Source: Vulcanimicrobiota bacterium
GTDB taxonomy: Bacteria; Vulcanimicrobiota; Vulcanimicrobiia; Vulcanimicrobiales; Vulcanimicrobiaceae
Length of the DNA stretch: 64,000 bases
NCBI GenBank assembly: GCA_963833095.1
Contig: CAWHWQ010000004.1
Span: forward strand, 206,702 to 270,701
Direction: 5' to 3'
The stretch's first letter is position 1, and the number at the start of each line of letters is the position of its first letter. Below are positions 56,056 through 64,000 of this stretch, in pieces. The position numbers and the translations under genes are program-made. The notes beneath the pieces are model-generated. The model saw only the letters and a program-made list of their open reading frames with translations. It did no database searches and had not been told where the DNA came from.

Positions 56056-57042
56056 TTAGCGCCGACTCAAGCCGGAGAGTTCGGCGGTGATGCGTTCGAC
56101 GAGCGTGCGGTGATCGTCAGGATCGCTCCCGGCCGCACCCGTAACAATCGATTCGACGCCGTGAACGGCCCGTTCGTACGCGATCCGGGCGCGCCGTTCG
56201 CCGACCCTCCCCGCGATCGGCCGCAGGATGCGTTCGCGCCATTTGGCTCGCGCGGGAAGCTCCCCGCCGGGCCGGGCCAACTCCCAGAGCAGCCCGCATT
56301 CCGTCGCCAGCGCCGAGAGCAGCGGAATCGCGGCACCGCGCGGATCGTTTGCAAAAAACTCGTGGGCGATACCCAGAGCTTCGCCGACGCGTCCCTCGAC
56401 CAGCGCGCTTGCGTACCGGTAGGCCTTGGGATCCTCGATCGACAGCGACTCGCCCTCGAGGTCTTTGTAGGTAATTTTCTTGCCCGCAAGCGAGAGTTTT
56501 TCGAGGTCGTTGCGCACGCTAGCCAGATCGGCTTCGCTGCGCGCAAGCTCGCTGCGGACGCGCGGCTCTGCGCTTGCGCCCAGCGCCACCAACACTTCGT
56601 CGACGTAGCGGGCCCGCGTCTCTTCATTCGCGGTCGTATCGATGCGCAGCGCGGCGCGACCGGCCTGCGCGCCCAGCGGCTGCGGTCGCTGCGAGCGCGG
56701 CGAAAGCAAATCGAGCACAACGAGCGTGTTGCCGTCGGGAACCGATTCCATGACTTCAAAGAGATCGCGTCGCGGTTGCGCGCGCAGCGTCTGTGCGTCG
56801 CTCACCACGACCACGCGCCGATCGGCAAGAAACGGCATTGCCGAAACCGCTTCGCGCGCGCGCGTAGCGTCGTTCCACTCCGATGCGGCGATACGCTCGA
56901 GATTGAGCTCCCGCATGTCGGACGGGAGTACGCGATCGAGAAGAACCTCGAGCGCGCGCTCCGCCAGCGCGCGCTCGGTGCCTTCGATGACCACCAGATT
57001 GCCGATCTTCGGCGCTTTATCAATGAACTCGTAGAATTTCAC
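56056..57042 (-). CDS. holA: DNA polymerase III delta subunit
   Basis: G.E..L, MPFLADRRVVVV, NDLEKL. Confidence 0.8.
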   Translation of the reverse strand: MKFYEFIDKAPKIGNLVVIEGTERALAERALEVLLDRVLPSDMRELNLERIAASEWNDATRAREAVSAMPFLADRRVVVVSDAQTLRAQPRRDLFEVMESVPDGNTLVVLDLLSPRSQRPQPLGAQAGRAALRIDTTANEETRARYVDEVLVALGASAEPRVRSELARSEADLASVRNDLEKLSLAGKKITYKDLEGESLSIEDPKAYRYASALVEGRVGEALGIAHEFFANDPRGAAIPLLSALATECGLLWELARPGGELPARAKWRERILRPIAGRVGERRARIAYERAVHGVESIVTGAAGSDPDDHRTLVERITAELSGLSRR

Positions 57043-57052
57043 GAGGAGTATT

Positions 57053-58078
57053 TCACGTTACGAATGCGCTCGCGTTCGGACGCAATTCCAGCGCCGGGAT
57101 CGCTTCGTAATACGGCGCGCGAATCACGCCGTACTCCGTCACGAAAGCCGTGACGAGGTGTCCGGGCGTAACATCGAATGCCGGATTAAACACGTGCGCG
57201 CCCGCCGGCGCGACCGCCGTGCCGCCGAACGCGGTCACCTCGCTTGCCGCGCGCTCTTCGATCTGAATCGACGCGCCCGATTCGATGCTGAAGTCGAACG
57301 TCGAGCGCGGCGCTGCGACATAGAACGGAATGCCGTGGTGCGCAGCTAGAATCGCAAGGCCGTAGGTACCGATTTTATTAGCCGTATCGCCGTTGCGCGC
57401 GATGCGATCGGCGCCGACGATCACAAGGTCGATGTTTTTTCGCGCCATTGCGAGGGCGGCAGCGCCGTCGACCTGCAGCGTCGCGTCGACGCCCGCCTGC
57501 GCAAGCTCGAAATAGGTCAAGCGCGCGCCTTGCAACAGCGGGCGTGTCTCGTCGACAAAAACGTGCGGATGCTTCCCGGCGCGCTGCGCCGCGATGATCA
57601 CACCCAGCGCCGTCCCACCGCCGGCGGTCGCGATGGGTCCGGTATTGCAATGGGTGAGGATCCGGGCGCCCTTGGGGATCAGGTCGAGGCCGGCATCGGC
57701 TATCGCGACGTCCATCGCGAGCTGCTCGCGGTGAATAGAGCGCGCTTCGGACTGCATGTCATCGGCGGCGAGCACGCGGTCGACCGCCCACGCGAGGTTC
57801 ACGGCCGTCGGACGCGCATCGCGGATGCGCCGCGCGGCCGCATGAAATTCTTCGTCGCTAGCCAGGGCGTCGCGCAACATCGCCACGCCGTACGCTCCAA
57901 AAACGCCGATAGCCGGAGCGCCGCGAACCGCCAGCGTCTTGATCGCCTCTTCGATATCGTCGACGGTGCGTGCGCGCTTGCGTTCGATCGCATGCGGAAT
58001 CAGCCGCTGATCGACATAGGTCAACGCCTCGCCGTCGAAAGCGACGGCTGAGAGTTCATCCGGAGAGGGGGTGGCCAT
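57053..58078 (-). CDS. mtnA: methylthioribose-1-phosphate isomerase
   Basis: DQR.IP, VRGAPAIG, RPTAVNL, THCNTG, ETRPLLQGARLT, ANKIGTY. Confidence 0.95.
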   Translation of the reverse strand: MATPSPDELSAVAFDGEALTYVDQRLIPHAIERKRARTVDDIEEAIKTLAVRGAPAIGVFGAYGVAMLRDALASDEEFHAAARRIRDARPTAVNLAWAVDRVLAADDMQSEARSIHREQLAMDVAIADAGLDLIPKGARILTHCNTGPIATAGGGTALGVIIAAQRAGKHPHVFVDETRPLLQGARLTYFELAQAGVDATLQVDGAAALAMARKNIDLVIVGADRIARNGDTANKIGTYGLAILAAHHGIPFYVAAPRSTFDFSIESGASIQIEERAASEVTAFGGTAVAPAGAHVFNPAFDVTPGHLVTAFVTEYGVIRAPYYEAIPALELRPNASAFVT

Positions 58079-58107
58079 GGTGGGAATCCTTTCGGGATTC
58101 CCAGCCG

Positions 58108-58407
58108 TCAAACCCCGGCCGGAACTTGGGCGGTGTAACAGGTGCGGCAGTACACCGGCCGATCGCCGCGCGGGCGGAACGGGACCGTGGTGTTGACGCC
58201 GCACGAGGCACAGACGGCCTCGAAACTGGGACGAGCTCCAGACGGAGCGGGCGCGTGCTCGCCGTTCTGCGTCCTGCGCGCCTGACGGCATTCGCGGCAA
58301 CGCTGGGGTTGATTCTGAAAACCTTTTTCGGCAAAGAACTGCTGCTCGCGAGCGGTAAAGGCGAACTGGTTCCCACAGTCCTTGCACGTGATCATCTTGT
58401 CTTCCAC
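58108..58407 (-). CDS. zinc-ribbon + CxxC-x17-CxxC protein (paralog of 36409)
   Basis: CKDC..F.F...EQQFF..KGF..QPQRCREC...CASC...VPFRPRGDRPVYCRTC. Confidence 0.92.
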   Translation of the reverse strand: MEDKMITCKDCGNQFAFTAREQQFFAEKGFQNQPQRCRECRQARRTQNGEHAPAPSGARPSFEAVCASCGVNTTVPFRPRGDRPVYCRTCYTAQVPAGV

Positions 58408-58460
58408 AGGGTCGGAGCCTCCGGAGCTAATCTACCGTTAAGGCCTGGTAAAGTGCTACT

Positions 58461-59249
58461 TTGGTAAGCGCGCTCCCTCCCAGGACAGAGCGATTCCCCA
58501 GCTCTTCTTCGCTCTCTGTCACCCTGAGGTGCGAAGCCTCGAAGGGTCTTAAAGTGATGATCCCATGGGTGCCCACGGTGGTCGTCGGCGACCGATTGCC
58601 GGCCAATCCGCAGTTGCTCGATCAGTCCGGCCGCGCGCTTCGCTGGAGCCAACTGAACGGTCGGGCCTTTGCCGTGACCTTCATCTACACGCGCTGCCGC
58701 GAGAGCGCCGAGTGCCCCGCGACATCGGCCAAGTTCGCACGGCTTCAGCACGAGATTCCCAGCAACGCGCGCCTGCTCGAGGTGACCATCGATCCGAGCT
58801 ACGATCGCCCCTCCGTCCTGCGTCGCTACGGTGCAATGTTCGGCGCCGATCCGGCTCGCTGGACGCTCGCCACCGGCGATCCGCAGACAGTGCTCACGCT
58901 CGCGAAGCGATTCAACGTGATCGTTTCACCCGGGCCGCGCGCGGGCCGGCTGGAACACGGCGAGGCGATCGCCGTGTTCGATACGCAAGAACGGCTCGTG
59001 TCTCTCACCGCCGGCAACAGCTGGCAGCCGCGTGAAATTCTCGCCGAATTGCAAACCGCGAGTGGCATGCGCGGCGGTTTGCTCGATCGATTCACGCTGT
59101 GGTTTCGCAATTTCGGGATTGCGTGCGGCGCCGTGCTGACCGTCGGCGATCGATTGTCGCGTCCGCTCGCTGGCCTGATTCTGGTCGCGCTGCTTGTCCT
59201 GATCGTGGGCGCGTCTGCCGTGCTGCTGCGCGGGCTGCGCGGGGTTTAG
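58461..59249 (+). CDS. SCO/SenC copper chaperone family (start uncertain, may be 58558)
   Basis: TFIYTRCRESAECP, TIDP.YD.P, W.LATG, EH; C-terminal TM. Confidence 0.82.
   Translation: MVSALPPRTERFPSSSSLSVTLRCEASKGLKVMIPWVPTVVVGDRLPANPQLLDQSGRALRWSQLNGRAFAVTFIYTRCRESAECPATSAKFARLQHEIPSNARLLEVTIDPSYDRPSVLRRYGAMFGADPARWTLATGDPQTVLTLAKRFNVIVSPGPRAGRLEHGEAIAVFDTQERLVSLTAGNSWQPREILAELQTASGMRGGLLDRFTLWFRNFGIACGAVLTVGDRLSRPLAGLILVALLVLIVGASAVLLRGLRGV
58517..58546 (+). repeat. palindromic repeat at or in the SCO 5' end
   Basis: Identical to 19563-19592. Confidence 0.88.
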
Positions 59250-59325
59250 GCGAATCGCGTCACGATTTCCGCCAACCCGAACAGGATCATCGGCGCCCCG
59301 ATGACCGCAATGTCGCGTGGCGGCT

Positions 59326-59736
59326 TTATAGGGCGTGCTCTCTGCGCCATACGAGGAATCCGCGGCCGAGTCGTTCGCCCTGTCCCGGCATCGTTTGCTC
59401 GGCGCTGGTAATCCGGAGCTCATCCCCGTCGATTTCGAAGTAGCGAACCTGTTTCGTCCCGAGCCAACTCGGATGCCACGACAGATCAACGTCGGTGACA
59501 AACCGATTCCCTTCGGTCGTGAAGTGACCCGAGTACGCAGCCACACCGCCGAACAGTCTGGCCGGATCGTCGGCAGCCGTTCGCTGCGTATCGGTAAGGA
59601 GCGCGATCACGCGGTTTCCGGGCAAGAAGGCGATAAGTCCGGCCGGAGCAGCTCCCATCAGGTCCGCCGTTTCACCGGTGTCTGAAAATCGCTGCTTGCA
59701 CTCCACCAAGCGCCAAAGGCCCAAGAGTGGCTCCAT
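59326..59736 (-). CDS. lipocalin-like domain protein
   Basis: LLGLWRLV, AYSG.F, P.WLGT.QVR, LVWRR. Confidence 0.8.
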   Translation of the reverse strand: MEPLLGLWRLVECKQRFSDTGETADLMGAAPAGLIAFLPGNRVIALLTDTQRTAADDPARLFGGVAAYSGHFTTEGNRFVTDVDLSWHPSWLGTKQVRYFEIDGDELRITSAEQTMPGQGERLGRGFLVWRREHAL

Positions 59737-59741
59737 CGGTG

Positions 59742-60242
59742 TTACGAGCGAAAGCCTGCGCGCGGAAGTTTACTCGGAATGTTGACCAGCGTAGCTGCAG
59801 CAATCGCCGCTTCGTAGCCTTTATCGCCGCGCGCCGGATCGGCACGCTCTTGCGCTTGCGCGAGATTCTCGGTGGTGAGCACGCCAAAGCCGATCGGCAC
59901 CGCAGTCGCTAGCTGCACCTCCATGATGCCGCGCGCACATTCGCCCGCCACGAAATCAAAATGCGGCGTCTCGCCGCGAATCACGACTCCAAGGGCAACG
60001 ATCGCGTCGTAGCGATCGGCTTCGATCAGCTTACGGCACGCAAGCGGCAATTCGAAACAGCCCGGAACTTCGACCACGTCGATCTCGTCGCGCTCGACCC
60101 CGCAATCGGCGAGCGCACGCTGCGCGCCGTCGATCATCCAGTCGGTCAAGTCGCGATAAAAGCGTGCGGCAACGATCGCAAAGCGGCGGCCCGCGCATTG
60201 CGGCGCAGGTACGCGCTTGCCGTTGCCCTCGCGCGGTTTCAC
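59742..60242 (-). CDS. ribH: lumazine synthase
   Basis: IVAARF, VPGCFELP, VIRGETPHF, FGVLT, KG.EAA. Confidence 0.96.
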   Translation of the reverse strand: MKPREGNGKRVPAPQCAGRRFAIVAARFYRDLTDWMIDGAQRALADCGVERDEIDVVEVPGCFELPLACRKLIEADRYDAIVALGVVIRGETPHFDFVAGECARGIMEVQLATAVPIGFGVLTTENLAQAQERADPARGDKGYEAAIAAATLVNIPSKLPRAGFRS

Positions 60243-61648
60243 GACGCGACGGTTTCGTCGAACATGTGGCCCAGCTTAGCGCGTTTGGTGGCCATGTATT
60301 TCTTGTTGTGCACGGTCGGCGCGGTTTGCATCGAGACCCGGCCGACGATCTTGATCCCATAGCCTTCCAGGCCGAAGATCTTGCGCGGGTTGTTGGTAAT
60401 GAGGCGCAATTCTTTGATGCCGAGGTCGGCGAGGATCTGCGAACCGATGCCGTAGTCGCGCTTGTCAACGGGCAGGCCTAGCGCGAGGTTGGCCTCGACC
60501 GTGTCCGCGCCATGATCTTGCAACTCGTAGGCGCGCAACTTGTTGGCTAGACCAATACCACGGCCTTCTTGACGCAAATACAGGAAGACACCGCGCCCTT
60601 CTTTGGCGATCATTTCCATCGCACCGTCGCGCTGCGCGGCGCAATCGCAGCGAATCGAGTGCAGTGCATCACCGGTCAAACATTCGGAGTGCACGCGAAC
60701 GAGCACGTCTTTCCCGCTGCTGATGTCGCCCATGATCAAGGCAACGTGGGTGTTTCCATCGATGGTCGTTTCGTACGCGACGCCCTTCCAGTCTCCGGTG
60801 GTGGTCGGCAGGTTGAATTCGGCGACGCGTTTGACAAGTTTTTCGGTACGCATACGGTACGCAATGAGATCCTTCACGGTGATGAGCCGAAGATTGTGTC
60901 GATCGGCATACACCCGTAACCCGTCGAGACGTTCCATCGTTCCGTCCTCGGCCATGATTTCGCAGATCACTCCTGCGGGATAGAGTCCGGCCATGCGCGC
61001 GAGATCGACCGATGCCTCGGTTTGCCCCGCACGCACCAGGACGCCGCCCGCTCGCGCGCGCAGCGGAAAGGTGTGACCCGGTCGCAAGAAATCCGCTGGC
61101 ACGGCGTCGGGGTCGAGCAGCTTCTTGACTGTCGCCGCGCGATCGTGCGCCGAAATTCCCGTCGTCGTGACACCACGCGCTTCGACCGAAACGGTGAACG
61201 CCGTTTCGTGCACGGCGGTATTGTCGCGAACCATTTGCGGAATCTGCAAATCGTCCAAGCGCGATCCCAGCAGCGGAACGCAAATCAATCCGCCGGCTTC
61301 TTTGCGCATGAAGTTGATCGCGTCGGGCGTGATCTTCTCCGCGGCCATCACCAGATCGCCTTCGTTTTCGCGATCCTCGTCATCGAGTACGACCACCATT
61401 TTGCCGGCGCGAATATCCTCGAGCGCATCCGGGATCGTATCGAAGGGCGAAGCGCGTTCGGCGGGCGCGGGAGCCAACTCGGGCAGCACGGCGGTCAAGC
61501 GCTGCAAGGTCCGGTAGGACGGCTCACGGCGTCCGGCCCGCAAAAGGGACACCGCCGACTCGGTTACTCCCGCCTTGAGCGCAAGCTCGGAGGCCGAGAG
61601 ACCGGCGGCCTCAAGTGCGGCGTTGAGGTTCGCGGCAAATTCGCTCAT
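60239..61648 (-). CDS. ribBA: N-terminal XRE HTH fused to DHBP synthase/GTP cyclohydrolase II
   Basis: LSASELALKAGVTESAVSLLRAGRREPS, then DDEDRENEGDL, RVHSECLTGD, QEGRGIGL, TNNP.K. Confidence 0.95.
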   Translation of the reverse strand: MSEFAANLNAALEAAGLSASELALKAGVTESAVSLLRAGRREPSYRTLQRLTAVLPELAPAPAERASPFDTIPDALEDIRAGKMVVVLDDEDRENEGDLVMAAEKITPDAINFMRKEAGGLICVPLLGSRLDDLQIPQMVRDNTAVHETAFTVSVEARGVTTTGISAHDRAATVKKLLDPDAVPADFLRPGHTFPLRARAGGVLVRAGQTEASVDLARMAGLYPAGVICEIMAEDGTMERLDGLRVYADRHNLRLITVKDLIAYRMRTEKLVKRVAEFNLPTTTGDWKGVAYETTIDGNTHVALIMGDISSGKDVLVRVHSECLTGDALHSIRCDCAAQRDGAMEMIAKEGRGVFLYLRQEGRGIGLANKLRAYELQDHGADTVEANLALGLPVDKRDYGIGSQILADLGIKELRLITNNPRKIFGLEGYGIKIVGRVSMQTAPTVHNKKYMATKRAKLGHMFDETVAS

Positions 61649-61657
61649 AGGACCTCA

Positions 61658-61687
61658 ACCCTATGCCCGGACTTGACAAATGTCAAG
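61658..61687 (-). promoter_or_regulatory. ribBA promoter overlapped by palindrome CTTGACA-AA-TGTCAAG
   Basis: Minus strand: TTGACA (61686-81), 17 nt, TAGGGT (61663-58); ATG at 61648. Confidence 0.55.
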
Positions 61688-63978
61688 ATGATATATCTGA
61701 CTCACCTTAGGGAAAGTGCTCGGGTCTGCTCTCCGAGGCGGGCGACAACCCTACTGGGCGGCGAAAAGGGGCAGGGGTGGAAATAATGAACGCTCGCCCG
61801 CATCGGACGAAACCGCAATGGTCGTAGGTCCGGGTTTGATGATCTGTCTGAGCTTAGGTGTGATCGCGGGCGGGACCTACAATCCTTCGCCGCCAGCGTT
61901 CGCCGCTGGTATGCACAATGGTGGTGGTGGCCGCTTATTTCCGTCCTAAGCCTGTTGACGCTGCCGGGCGGAATATTTCTCGGCTACTTTCCTCCCGCAC
62001 ATGAGTCTGGCTTTCGGGGCGGCTGTGCCGTGGTATTTTGTGACTAAAAGAGCAAAAAAAAGCGCGACTACCATCACATAATATTCAGGCCGATGAAACT
62101 TACCGGCATATTGCACAACAGCGTGATAGAGCTCGAACGGCGGTAAAGGTTATTTAAGCCTTAAAACAAAAAGGAGCGCGATGGGGCTACGCCGAGAGTT
62201 TGAAACTGCCGTTCCGAAACAAGTCTTTGACGCAATGAAAACAGGTCGGGGAGAATGCCGAAAAAACGCGCGGCGAGGCGCTGAATGAAAAAATGCGGCA
62301 GTGAATAAGAAGTGGGCGATGGTCGTTCATAACATTGATTAGCTACTATCGCTATAGTTGACTTGCTGCCAAGTCTTGATTGGAAGTCCTCAAGAGGGAT
62401 GGAGGCGCGCGAGCCATCGAAACGTGAATTCGAGCGGAGACCCTGTTACAGACTTCATGGTGATGCAGGACGCTAACGAAAAAGACTTTTAGCACAATAC
62501 GTCCGCAGATCATTAAAGTTATGCGTGAACTACAATTTAACCATGGCCTCTATAACTACGCGCTTAGTGATACCAAGATCGGAAGCATCGTTAACGACCC
62601 GATAATAGAGTTGCCGAGATGATGGCTGGCTTTGGTGACCCTCGGATTTATACGCTACTCGCGAAGCATAATCGCCGAGTCCGCGATAGTGGCATGTCCC
62701 GAAGCGAGCTTACGTGCTGCAGAGCGCGAAGAACCAGCGCTAAGAATGCAAGGAGACAACAATAAAGGGCGAGGACGCCATGAAGCGCTTCGAGGACTTT
62801 CCTCTTTGGGTCGGCGTAATCCGCGCTGGGGAAAAAGGAAGGGGCCGAAGAGGTCAGAGAAGTCATTGAAGATGCCATCCCGAACCTACGGAGAAACCCG
62901 AGGCCGATGAATAGGTCCGCGCTGGTTAATCCGCAGTTCGGCGTTCGTGCAACGCAGCGCCATCATACGTCAAGCGGCTGTCCATCCGTACCCTTGAGGA
63001 CCGTTGCGAAGCGCCCAGCGTCGTCTCTTCCCTCGCGAGCGTTGAACCGGAACACCTGCTCGTCAACGTAGGCGTCAAGATGGAACGGAACGCGGTGCAA
63101 ATGTACGTCCCGTGAAGCGTGCGCTTGAAGCAGCCCCAGAAGTTCTCAATCGTGTTGGTATGCACGTCGGCCTTCGCAGTACGTCACCCAATGGTCGATG
63201 AAGGCGTGCGCGTAGCCAATGTCGGGAAGCCCGCGATACGGTCCCCATCGCATCGGTGTAGATCGTCGCGTTCGGAAACACGTTTGGCGCGAATATGCGG
63301 TAAACAGCGTCGAACGCTTGCGATCAGGCTATAACCATCGCTTTGAACTTTGGCACTGGCTGCGTCCCTTCGTTGCGGCCATGCCGAGTACCATCGTCTT
63401 GCCCTCGAACGGATACACGCTCTTTACGGTTCTGGTACTTGTTACGGCCAAGCCCATCGTTGGCGATGTTTGCGAGCACCGACGAAGGTTTCGTCAACTT
63501 CAACTTCGCCCTCGAACTTTGTGGGCTCCACCATCGCGCATCGCTTCACGAACGCGGTGCAGCATGAACCACGCCGTCTTTTGCGTTACGCCGAGCGCCC
63601 GCGCAAGTTCGTGCGAGGACGTTCCGTTCTTGGTGTTCGCCAGGAGCCAAAGAGCCGGGAGCCATTGCCAAAACGAGATCGGGCTCTTCCTCAAAGATCG
63701 TCCCGGTCTTAGCCGAGAAACACGCGCTTGCAATCTTTGCAGCGCCAGGTCTTGCGGGTCGAGGATGAACTGCACGGCAGCCGAGCCGCAACCCATCCGG
63801 GGGCACGCAACCGCGTGCGGCCAGCGGACCTTAACGAAGTGGGCCCAGGCCCGCTCGGGGTCCGAGAAGTAGGTCACGGCTTCGAGGAGGGTCGTCGGCT
63901 GCTTGTCCATACCCTGAGCATGTACTCGCCCGGTGACACCTGGGTGGCATCAGAAGGTGAGTCAGGTATATCATCCGG
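61684..63978 (-). mobile_element. IS1595-family element with passenger DNA
   Basis: Ends CAAGATGATATATCTGACTCACCTT and CCGGATGATATACCTGACTCACCTT (revcomp); 8-bp direct repeat ACAAATGT at 61676-83 and 63979-86; lower-GC interior. Confidence 0.9.
62926..63910 (-). CDS. IS1595-family transposase, multiple indels; 3' end approximate
   Basis: RWP...CP..CG zinc ribbon, GTIFE, LAR.LGVTQKTAWFMLHR.R, EVDETF, IYTD, HTNTIENFW..FKR. Confidence 0.88.
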
Positions 63979-63986
63979 ACAAATGT

Positions 63987-64000
63987 CAAGATGATATATC
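63987..64000. mobile_element. start of a second identical IS end
   Basis: CAAGATGATATATC is identical to 61684-61697; truncated by the window edge. Confidence 0.6.

Follow-up and report, generated by a model that had tools for sequence, protein, structure and literature searches.

Control of riboflavin synthesis by one of its own enzymes is the probable function of a gene fusion found in one clade of the bacterial phylum Vulcanimicrobiota. The fusion lies in the window analysed here, a 64,000-nt stretch of a Vulcanimicrobiota genome (assembly GCA_963833095.1, contig CAWHWQ010000004.1, positions 206,702 to 270,701), and joins a helix-turn-helix (HTH) domain to the N-terminus of RibBA, the bifunctional enzyme at the entry to the pathway. 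As read from genome sequences, the fusion is conserved within one clade and a palindrome covers the -35 element of the predicted ribBA promoter; the palindrome is near-unique in its genome and is missing where the HTH is missing. We consider it probable that the enzyme autorepresses a leaderless ribBA-ribH operon: the palindrome would be bound by this HTH, binding would repress transcription, and the messenger RNA would be leaderless.

HTH-ribBA is a single open reading frame (ORF) in which three Pfam domains follow one another (table 1), and the XRE-type HTH in frame with a full RibBA that an earlier, sequence-only reading of this DNA had reported is indeed present. The HTH_3 domain (PF01381) matches residues 10-55 with 32.9 bits (cut-off 23), and a match to HTH_31, at 23.2 bits, lies under that family's cut-off of 27. 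Both enzyme domains are full length: DHBP_synthase (PF00926; 285 bits) spans profile positions 2-191 of 191 and GTP_cyclohydro2 (PF00925; 237 bits) spans positions 2-164 of 165. Residues C323, C334 and C336, which we take to be zinc ligands, are invariant among orthologues, and the orthologue alignment contains neither a stop nor a conserved internal start at the HTH/RibB junction. AlphaFold2, given a shallow alignment of 33 orthologues, places N-terminal helices at residues 2-15, 19-26, 30-37 and 45-54 with a predicted local distance difference test score (pLDDT) of 84-91, and linker residues 60-69 fall below 50; the model of the whole protein is poor, enzyme domains included (mean pLDDT 60). 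The HTH domain is predicted by this model to be a compact, confident four-helix fold followed by a disordered linker, and the recognition helix is around residues 30-37 (TESAVSLL, then RAGRREPS). Matches of the HTH to sequences in the PDB were weak only and included DBP48 and SinR (best E 0.0027); SinR matched at E 0.016-0.048, the 434 repressor at 0.63 and 434 Cro at 0.92. Database names of HTH-RibBA relatives mention the enzyme only.

Table 1. Features of the HTH-ribBA locus and of the adjoining insertion sequence (IS); positions are those of the window
Feature	Position	Strand	Basis or remark
HTH-ribBA gene	60239..61648	(-)	single ORF, 469 aa
XRE/Cro-C1-type HTH domain, residues 1-55	61484..61648	(-)	Pfam HTH_3 and AlphaFold2 helices
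Pro/Ala-rich linker, residues 56-69	61442..61483	(-)	low pLDDT, low identity
DHBP synthase (RibB) domain, residues 74-264	60857..61429	(-)	Pfam PF00926
GTP cyclohydrolase II (RibA) domain, residues 274-438	60335..60829	(-)	Pfam PF00925
ribH (lumazine synthase)	59742..60242	(-)	Pfam DMRL_synthase, 179 bits
Lipocalin_5-family gene	59326..59736	(-)	5 nt downstream of ribH, same strand
Perfect 16-bp palindrome CTTGACAAATGTCAAG, candidate operator	61672..61687		sequence
-35 hexamer TTGACA, left half-site in gene orientation	61686..61681	(-)	sequence
-10-like hexamer TAGGGT	61663..61658	(-)	17-nt spacer after -35; 9 nt before ATG
IS1595-family insertion sequence, 2,295 bp	61684-63978		inverted repeats and 8-bp direct repeat
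Left inverted repeat of IS, CAAGATGATATATCTGACTCACCTT	61684-61708		37-nt inverted repeat found
Right inverted repeat of IS	63954-63978		partner of CAAGATGATATATCTGACTCACCTT
Target-site duplication ACAAATGT, left copy (palindrome centre)	61676-61683		8-bp direct repeat
Target-site duplication ACAAATGT, right copy	63979-63986		8-bp direct repeat
Second, imperfect palindrome CCGGACAAATGTCAAG, rebuilt at right IS end	63975-63990		sequence
Small Cys-rich ORF, extra in window copy	58108-58407		
SCO1/SenC gene, extra in window copy	58461-59249		

The distribution of the fusion was followed across 201 sampled genomes from the phylum. Family f1 is named Candidatus Baltobacteraceae in the source and is filed by NCBI taxonomy, which puts Vulcanimicrobium there too, as Vulcanimicrobiaceae, phylum Vulcanimicrobiota; tallies for this family, for its order-mate f2 and for its class-mate f3 include two genomes flagged as unpublished (G178 and G128). 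A ribBA gene is present in 112 of the 113 sampled f1 genomes, and among the matches listed the alignments start at residue 1-4 except in G018, where the gene is cut by a contig end, and in G077, G162 and G145 (57-71 for the exceptions). The HTH-bearing full form occurs in 3/3 genomes of f2. All 15 genomes of f3 lack the HTH, and the other families likewise, because their matches begin only at about residue 50-70. The sequence-only reading had proposed searching for the combined architecture HTH_3, DHBP_synthase and GTP_cyclohydro2, and this architecture proves to be conserved: with residues 1-110 as the query, 119 of the best 120 matches have PF01381 and the RibBA domains, at 68-100% identity. 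With residues 1-66 as the query, 238 proteins of comparable length were retrieved; PF01381 is present in 119 of the 120 listed, and the RibBA domains in all 120. A search of named genomes for homologous loci returned 80, with the HTH in three only (L005, L006 and L008), and among 1.84 billion cluster representatives about ten span the HTH and the start of RibB (Pfam checked). No free-standing relative of this HTH was found in a search for shorter proteins, since most of its 14 matches are truncated pieces with DHBP_synthase; source names among them include Candidatus Baltobacteraceae and Candidatus Cybelea. In a few genomes ribBA lies in two adjacent or separate pieces (G199:C1:823174-824563, G220:C4:68073-69471, G160, G150 and G169), through frameshifts or contig breaks, and these split genes could be assembly errors or a real separation of RibB and RibA.

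Over 32 full-length genes, identity in the HTH region is 0.70 for amino acids, 0.79 for codon positions 1 and 2 and 0.44 for position 3, and it follows from the difference between 0.79 and 0.44 that the HTH is under purifying selection. The corresponding values are 0.43, 0.57 and 0.43 for the linker and 0.86-0.87, 0.91-0.92 and 0.55-0.58 for the enzyme domains. The motif TE[SAG]AIS[LY]LRSGRRxPS is nearly invariant in 53 orthologues.

The candidate operator lies directly upstream of ribBA. The palindrome that the sequence-only reading had placed over the -35 element is perfect over 16 bp, and one of its half-sites is the -35 hexamer itself. The ribBA ATG, at 61648, stands 9 nt beyond the -10-like TAGGGT, leaving essentially no leader. 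This putative promoter is called on the strength of a perfect -35 together with a geometry that is conserved among orthologues. In the 2.8-Mb genome of the window the palindrome TTGACANNTGTMAA occurs solely upstream of both ribBA copies (the second copy is described below). A weaker match at C1:855287 sits within a 292-aa ORF and was treated as chance, not as an operator.

Upstream DNA of 53 HTH-bearing loci, giving 52 unique regions, was then compared after anchoring on the motif. A 16-bp consensus, CTTnACA-NN-TGTnAAG, lies over the -35 element, with counts out of 52 of C 42, T 51, T 51, G 51, A 52, C 52 and A 47 in the left half and T 49, G 52, T 50, N, A 52, A 52 and G 43 in the right half. 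The free base of the right half is C in 15 regions, A in 19, T in 16 and G in 2, and two free bases separate the halves. All 11 fixed positions of TTGACANNTGTNAA are matched in 42 of the 53 loci; anchoring selects for the motif, and an 11/11 match in a 50-nt space is expected about once per 10^5 tries. The right half-site sits in the promoter spacer, where sigma-70 requires no specific sequence, and is conserved as strongly as the left half over the -35. At locus L151 (GTTAACGTCTGTTAAC) the left half deviates from the -35 consensus and agrees with the right half, so that symmetry is kept. A TANNNT hexamer follows the -35 by 16-18 nt in 42 of the 52 regions, and in 41 of these 42 the start codon comes 6-10 nt after it, a geometry that would fit a leaderless ribBA messenger. 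ATG is the start codon in 30 regions and GTG in 16.

Beyond the palindrome, different genera have unrelated DNA and different neighbouring genes. Among the upstream neighbours are a TetR-like gene in divergent orientation together with an MFS-like gene, a ribE-like frame and two further ORFs after it, a methylase-like ORF and transposases; these names were read from translations, with Pfam run on the transposases only. Orthologues free of any IS keep the full palindrome at a fixed distance from the start codon (for example L087-L090, L093, L096, L100, L103, L105 and L106), which is what the sequence-only reading had suggested looking for. Two further elements were noticed in these regions. Another conserved palindrome of about 28 bp, CATACTTGAAACGnnCGTTTCAAGTATG, lies some 60-110 nt upstream of ribBA at L095, L097, L107, L110, L113, L114 and L006, between ribBA and the divergent TetR-like gene that is followed by the MFS-like gene, and is presumably the operator of that TetR-like regulator itself. 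In the divergent genera represented by L144, L145, L148, L149 and L157, an extra half-site-like TGTCAAC or GTCAAG is found about 20-25 nt upstream of the main palindrome and may be an auxiliary site.

The palindrome is usually the sole site of its kind in a genome, to judge from a census of 61 f1 genomes, one per genus and four of them unpublished. The pattern TTGACANNTGTHAA gave 46 distinct sites in 40 of the 61 genomes, against 5 matches of a reversed control pattern. Twenty-eight of the sites are directly upstream of ribBA (one of them, G203:C227, on a contig-end fragment read as a ribBA N-terminus), 3 are elsewhere and 15 have no placement. Variants (TGTGAA, TTGACG) are found among the 21 genomes that gave no strict match, as are the HTH-less G077, G162 and G145. 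Of the sites away from ribBA, the one before a FUR-family gene in G045 stands among TTTACA repeats; it was treated as chance and set aside as a regulon member. The other two precede aldo/keto reductase genes in G201 and G209 (L159, G201:C129:513; L160, G209:C41:1581), where a perfect second palindrome is accompanied by the same element end that is described below. These may be a second target of HTH-RibBA or, because that element end is carried there, mere insertion sites of the element.

Loci that lack the HTH also lack the palindrome. The motif was absent within 300 nt in all 20 HTH-less loci searched, 19 of which are assessable, the remaining one being truncated at the end of its contig. 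The reading frame immediately before ribBA is ribE-like in most of these loci, to judge by its C-terminal motif. The most telling case of co-absence is G077, in which the HTH has been deleted and the promoter TTGACA-17-TAGCCT-6-ATG retained, and the right half-site now reads CCGTTTGC. Among HTH-bearing loci, residue 35, in the recognition helix, and base 11 of the operator show a co-variation that is suggestive only: in raw counts, Y goes with T or G in 13/13 cases and L with A or C in 34/39. L097, L102 and L157 (missed by the regular expression), L002 (a duplicate) and L092 (no upstream sequence) were left out before the co-variation was tested on a tree.

The flavin mononucleotide (FMN) riboswitch is the usual means of controlling rib genes in bacteria. 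No Rfam family matched in the window, and no FMN riboswitch was found in the window's genome, which is 80.7% complete. Across the phylum RF00050 was matched in 0 of 151 genomes, lineages with an HTH-less RibBA included; the same search matched 7 of 14 control genomes. Its absence from the whole phylum, HTH-less lineages among them, means that the HTH is not a one-for-one replacement of a riboswitch, and the claim of the sequence-only reading that the fusion stands in place of an FMN riboswitch is not supported in that form. The other part of that reading, an enzyme that is also a repressor, gains from the conserved fusion and from the palindrome of IS-free orthologues, since absence of either would have counted as a refutation. 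The picture we favour, again as probable and from comparison of genomes, is of a lineage that as a whole lacks the riboswitch and of one clade that would have added protein-level control to the entry enzyme.

The proposed mechanism can be set out as follows. HTH-RibBA would be both enzyme and transcription factor, with its Cro/C1-type HTH carried on a flexible linker, and is the only GTP cyclohydrolase II and 3,4-dihydroxy-2-butanone 4-phosphate (DHBP) synthase of the cell, catalysing the two entry steps of riboflavin synthesis. RibBA enzymes are dimers, so two HTH domains would be held together and could bind the two half-sites of the palindrome. Since the palindrome reaches from the -35 into the beginning of the spacer in the protein's own promoter, binding would block RNA polymerase; a dimer centred at about -28.5 would occlude the -35, and more enzyme would mean less transcription of ribBA and ribH. 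The transcript would start at, or a few bases from, the start codon, and with no leader to hold a riboswitch, control would have to act at initiation. The start of ribH overlaps the ribBA stop by 4 nt and the two genes are probably co-transcribed, with the Lipocalin_5-family gene as a possible third member of the operon.

The position of the operator is also the position at which a mobile element has inserted. In the window an IS1595-family IS entered the centre of the palindrome, and its tip, CAAG, restores the outer four bases (61684-61687), so that a palindrome stands at each end of the element. The caveat of the sequence-only reading, that the last four bases of the palindrome fall within the IS end, is thereby borne out by the 8-bp duplication. 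At the right end, beyond CCGGACAAATGTCAAG, a further element end begins and the contig runs out. Duplications of 8 bp are usual for this family according to PMC8101967. Limits of 61704-63958, taken from the point at which the window diverges from the second ribBA copy on contig C5, were replaced by those of table 1 on the evidence of the duplication. The transposase match at 62966-63904 (-) is a pseudogene with three TGA and one TAG codons; Zn_ribbon_IS1595 scores 20.4 bits, under its cut-off of 25.4, and the broken DDE fragments have no Pfam match. Intact relatives beside ribBA in other genera have both Zn_ribbon_IS1595 and DDE_Tnp_IS1595. About 1.2 kb of the IS interior (61709-62900) contains no ORF with a Pfam match, is by eye AT-richer than its surroundings and may be passenger DNA or decayed sequence. 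RibBA HTH and transposase HTH have in common a generic 21-residue stretch only (E 0.017), which therefore gives no support for a common origin.

A second resolved insertion is found in G118, where an intact IS copy of 1,929 bp is flanked by ACATCTGT; here, as in the window, the element lies in the palindrome centre with an 8-bp duplication and its tip rebuilds both palindrome and -35, the variant tip CGAG giving the sole TCGACA -35 of the set. IS ends adjoin the palindrome in G000 (the window's genome), G118 (L173), G061 (L174), G053 (L175) and G148 (L176). Around the transposase genes next to ribBA in L174-L177, terminal inverted repeats were looked for and not found. A protein search (E <= 1e-20) detected the IS family in 30 of 121 f1 genomes, with a copy no more than about 2 kb upstream of ribBA in eight of the 30, and gave no match in the other 91. 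The element has inserted at the ribBA operator repeatedly and in more than one genus, which resembles target-site homing with a single-copy operator as the target.

A non-autonomous relative of the element was found at the operator of several loci: L002 (contig C5, about 1545-1640; C5:25527-25565), L086, L094, L104, L108, L154 and L005. Its 17-nt tip is that of the IS, and it has direct repeats (TTAWTGGGCAA...), two or three in number, at intervals of about 20 nt; the C5 copy also contains a hairpin, GGGCAAAGCC-ATCTGACTC-GGCTTTGCCC. This element, with the same 17-nt tip and sub-terminal repeats of about 20 nt, adjoins the C5 ribBA at the same point as the IS adjoins the window copy, and the C5 copy is not insertion-free because of this related element end. 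The sequence GAGTCAGRTATATCATC beside the palindrome was considered as an UP element or second operator and rejected, because the IS1595-family element and its non-autonomous relative have this sequence as their terminal inverted repeat; its matches with two mismatches at 8 other loci have no adjoining palindrome and were put down to chance.

Several observations weigh against autorepression of a leaderless operon. A strict sigma-70 scan of 59200-61800 called 0 promoters, because TAGGGT agrees with TATAAT at 3/6 positions only, and 10 of the 52 upstream regions have no TANNNT at 16-18 nt. G-rich runs such as GGAGG stand directly before the start codon in several orthologues and could serve as Shine-Dalgarno sites at short spacing if the transcript began further upstream. 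Neither ribE (C5:30555-31253) nor ribD (on C8) has a palindrome site in this genome, and control would therefore reach ribBA and ribH only. HTH-less relatives manage equally without an FMN riboswitch, and the HTH is not needed merely on account of its absence. On a tree of the enzyme part (49 rows) the co-variation of residue 35 and base 11 reduces to 3-4 independent contrasts, none in the wrong direction, and with so few a sign test cannot reach 0.05. Lastly, the IS1595-family element and its non-autonomous relative adjoin the palindrome in many genera and rebuild it, and part of the conservation of the outer four bases is IS-derived in those genomes because the element tips reconstitute them.

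This last point leads to the explanation that the palindrome is nothing but a promoter -35 combined with a mobile-element feature, either a preferred target or the abutted tips of IS1595-family ends with an outward-facing TTG(ACA), and that the HTH is a passenger with no regulatory role. The five genomes with IS ends at the palindrome, the eight of 30 IS-bearing genomes with a copy near ribBA, the tips (CAAG/CTTG) that rebuild the outer four bases, the TCGACA produced by the CGAG tip of G118 and the occurrence in G201, G209 and G237 of palindromes with element ends beside them at places other than ribBA all agree with it. We nevertheless regard it as very unlikely: with no transposase match in 91 of the 121 family genomes, the transposase cannot be what keeps the palindrome conserved, and many orthologues have the palindrome with no element end adjoining. 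An insertion scar would decay, yet the spacer-side TGTnAAG is nearly invariant, and purifying selection acts on the HTH. At the IS copies found elsewhere in G220, G043, G137, G199 and G120 no strict palindrome is recorded. Recognition of the palindrome by some other, unlinked factor, with the RibBA HTH binding elsewhere or having a role that does not involve DNA, is another explanation; regulators of the XRE family are numerous in any genome, and the test of helix against operator is underpowered. We judge it unlikely. The regulon of another factor would be expected to hold more sites than the essentially single-copy one at ribBA, no conserved regulator gene adjoins (the upstream genes vary between genera), and the right half-site has been lost in G077, the one lineage that kept the promoter and deleted the HTH.

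A different possibility is that HTH-RibBA does bind the palindrome and activates or tunes the promoter, as is proposed for its closest functional analogue, the archaeal regulator RbkR, in PMC5397151. The weak -10 (3/6) would suit a promoter in need of help. Activation is nonetheless quite unlikely given a site centred at about -28.5 over a perfect -35 with a 16-18-nt spacer. Such geometry is typical of steric repression, unlike that of class I or class II activators, and activation of the MerR type uses spacers of 19-20 nt. Autorepression thus remains the reading to which we give most weight.

An extension of autorepression, which we offer tentatively and with some doubt, combines a one-component flux sensor with an IS1595-family element that homes to the operator as a safe harbour. 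GTP, ribulose 5-phosphate, a product or an allosteric flavin would alter how the pair of HTH domains is presented, and the entry enzyme of vitamin B2 synthesis would tune its own transcription to the demand on the pathway. The IS would enter the operator centre, where its four terminal bases would restore both -35 and palindrome, and an essential gene would keep its promoter after the insertion.

Enzymes that regulate transcription are known from other pathways. In BirA the DNA-binding domain is N-terminal, as in HTH-RibBA, and a reaction intermediate drives dimerisation and DNA binding. BirA, NadR and PutA are like the proposed HTH-RibBA in that a single polypeptide is both a metabolic enzyme and a repressor of the genes of its own pathway; they differ from it in their enzymes, DNA-binding folds and ligands. 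The FMN riboswitch (RF00050) exerts negative feedback on the same genes (ribB or the rib operon), and a leaderless transcript would leave no room for it. Proteins of the SinR and phage 434 repressor type, to which Pfam gives the same small HTH fold, act as dimers on operators that are palindromic or repeated. They are stand-alone and have oligomerisation domains of their own, whereas in HTH-RibBA the enzyme would supply the dimer scaffold. The closest parallel is RbkR, an archaeal riboflavin kinase fused to a winged HTH; PMC5397151 also names BirA, NadR and PutA as other enzyme-regulator fusions. As described there, RbkR resembles HTH-RibBA in combining a riboflavin-pathway enzyme with a DNA-binding domain, in having palindromes upstream of riboflavin genes, in occurring in lineages that lack the FMN riboswitch and in having been found by comparative genomics (PMC5397151). 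The two are not homologous. RbkR is, in the same account, an archaeal CTP-dependent kinase at the end of the pathway with a winged HTH and a proposed activator of several rib and transporter genes, whereas HTH-RibBA is a bacterial entry enzyme with a Cro/C1-type HTH at a single operon, where the geometry suggests repression.

RbkR is the one protein regulator of the riboflavin pathway found in the literature searched, and the search turned up no paper that describes RibBA fused to an HTH, nor any on rib genes of this phylum being controlled at the protein level (subscription journals lay outside the search). If autorepression is correct, a large and mostly uncultured lineage of soil and peat controls vitamin B2 synthesis by means of the biosynthetic enzyme itself, and HTH-RibBA joins the few known enzyme-repressors as a new and independently evolved member. 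The system would, moreover, be compact, with one protein, one operator and one promoter. Repeated insertions of an IS that rebuilds the operator would bear on how transposons choose their targets.

HTH-RibBA is the sole RibB/RibA homologue in the window's genome apart from the second copy on contig C5, which is 99% identical. The genome (G000) has two stretches with holA-like, mtnA-like, ribH and ribBA genes, at C5:20223-24701 (L002) and at 56056-61648 of the window, and these could reflect either a mixture of two strains in the bin, whose contamination is 3.12%, or a true duplication. Three extra genes separate mtnA from ribH in the window copy and are missing from the C5 copy: the small Cys-rich ORF, the SCO1/SenC gene and, as the third, the Lipocalin_5-family gene.

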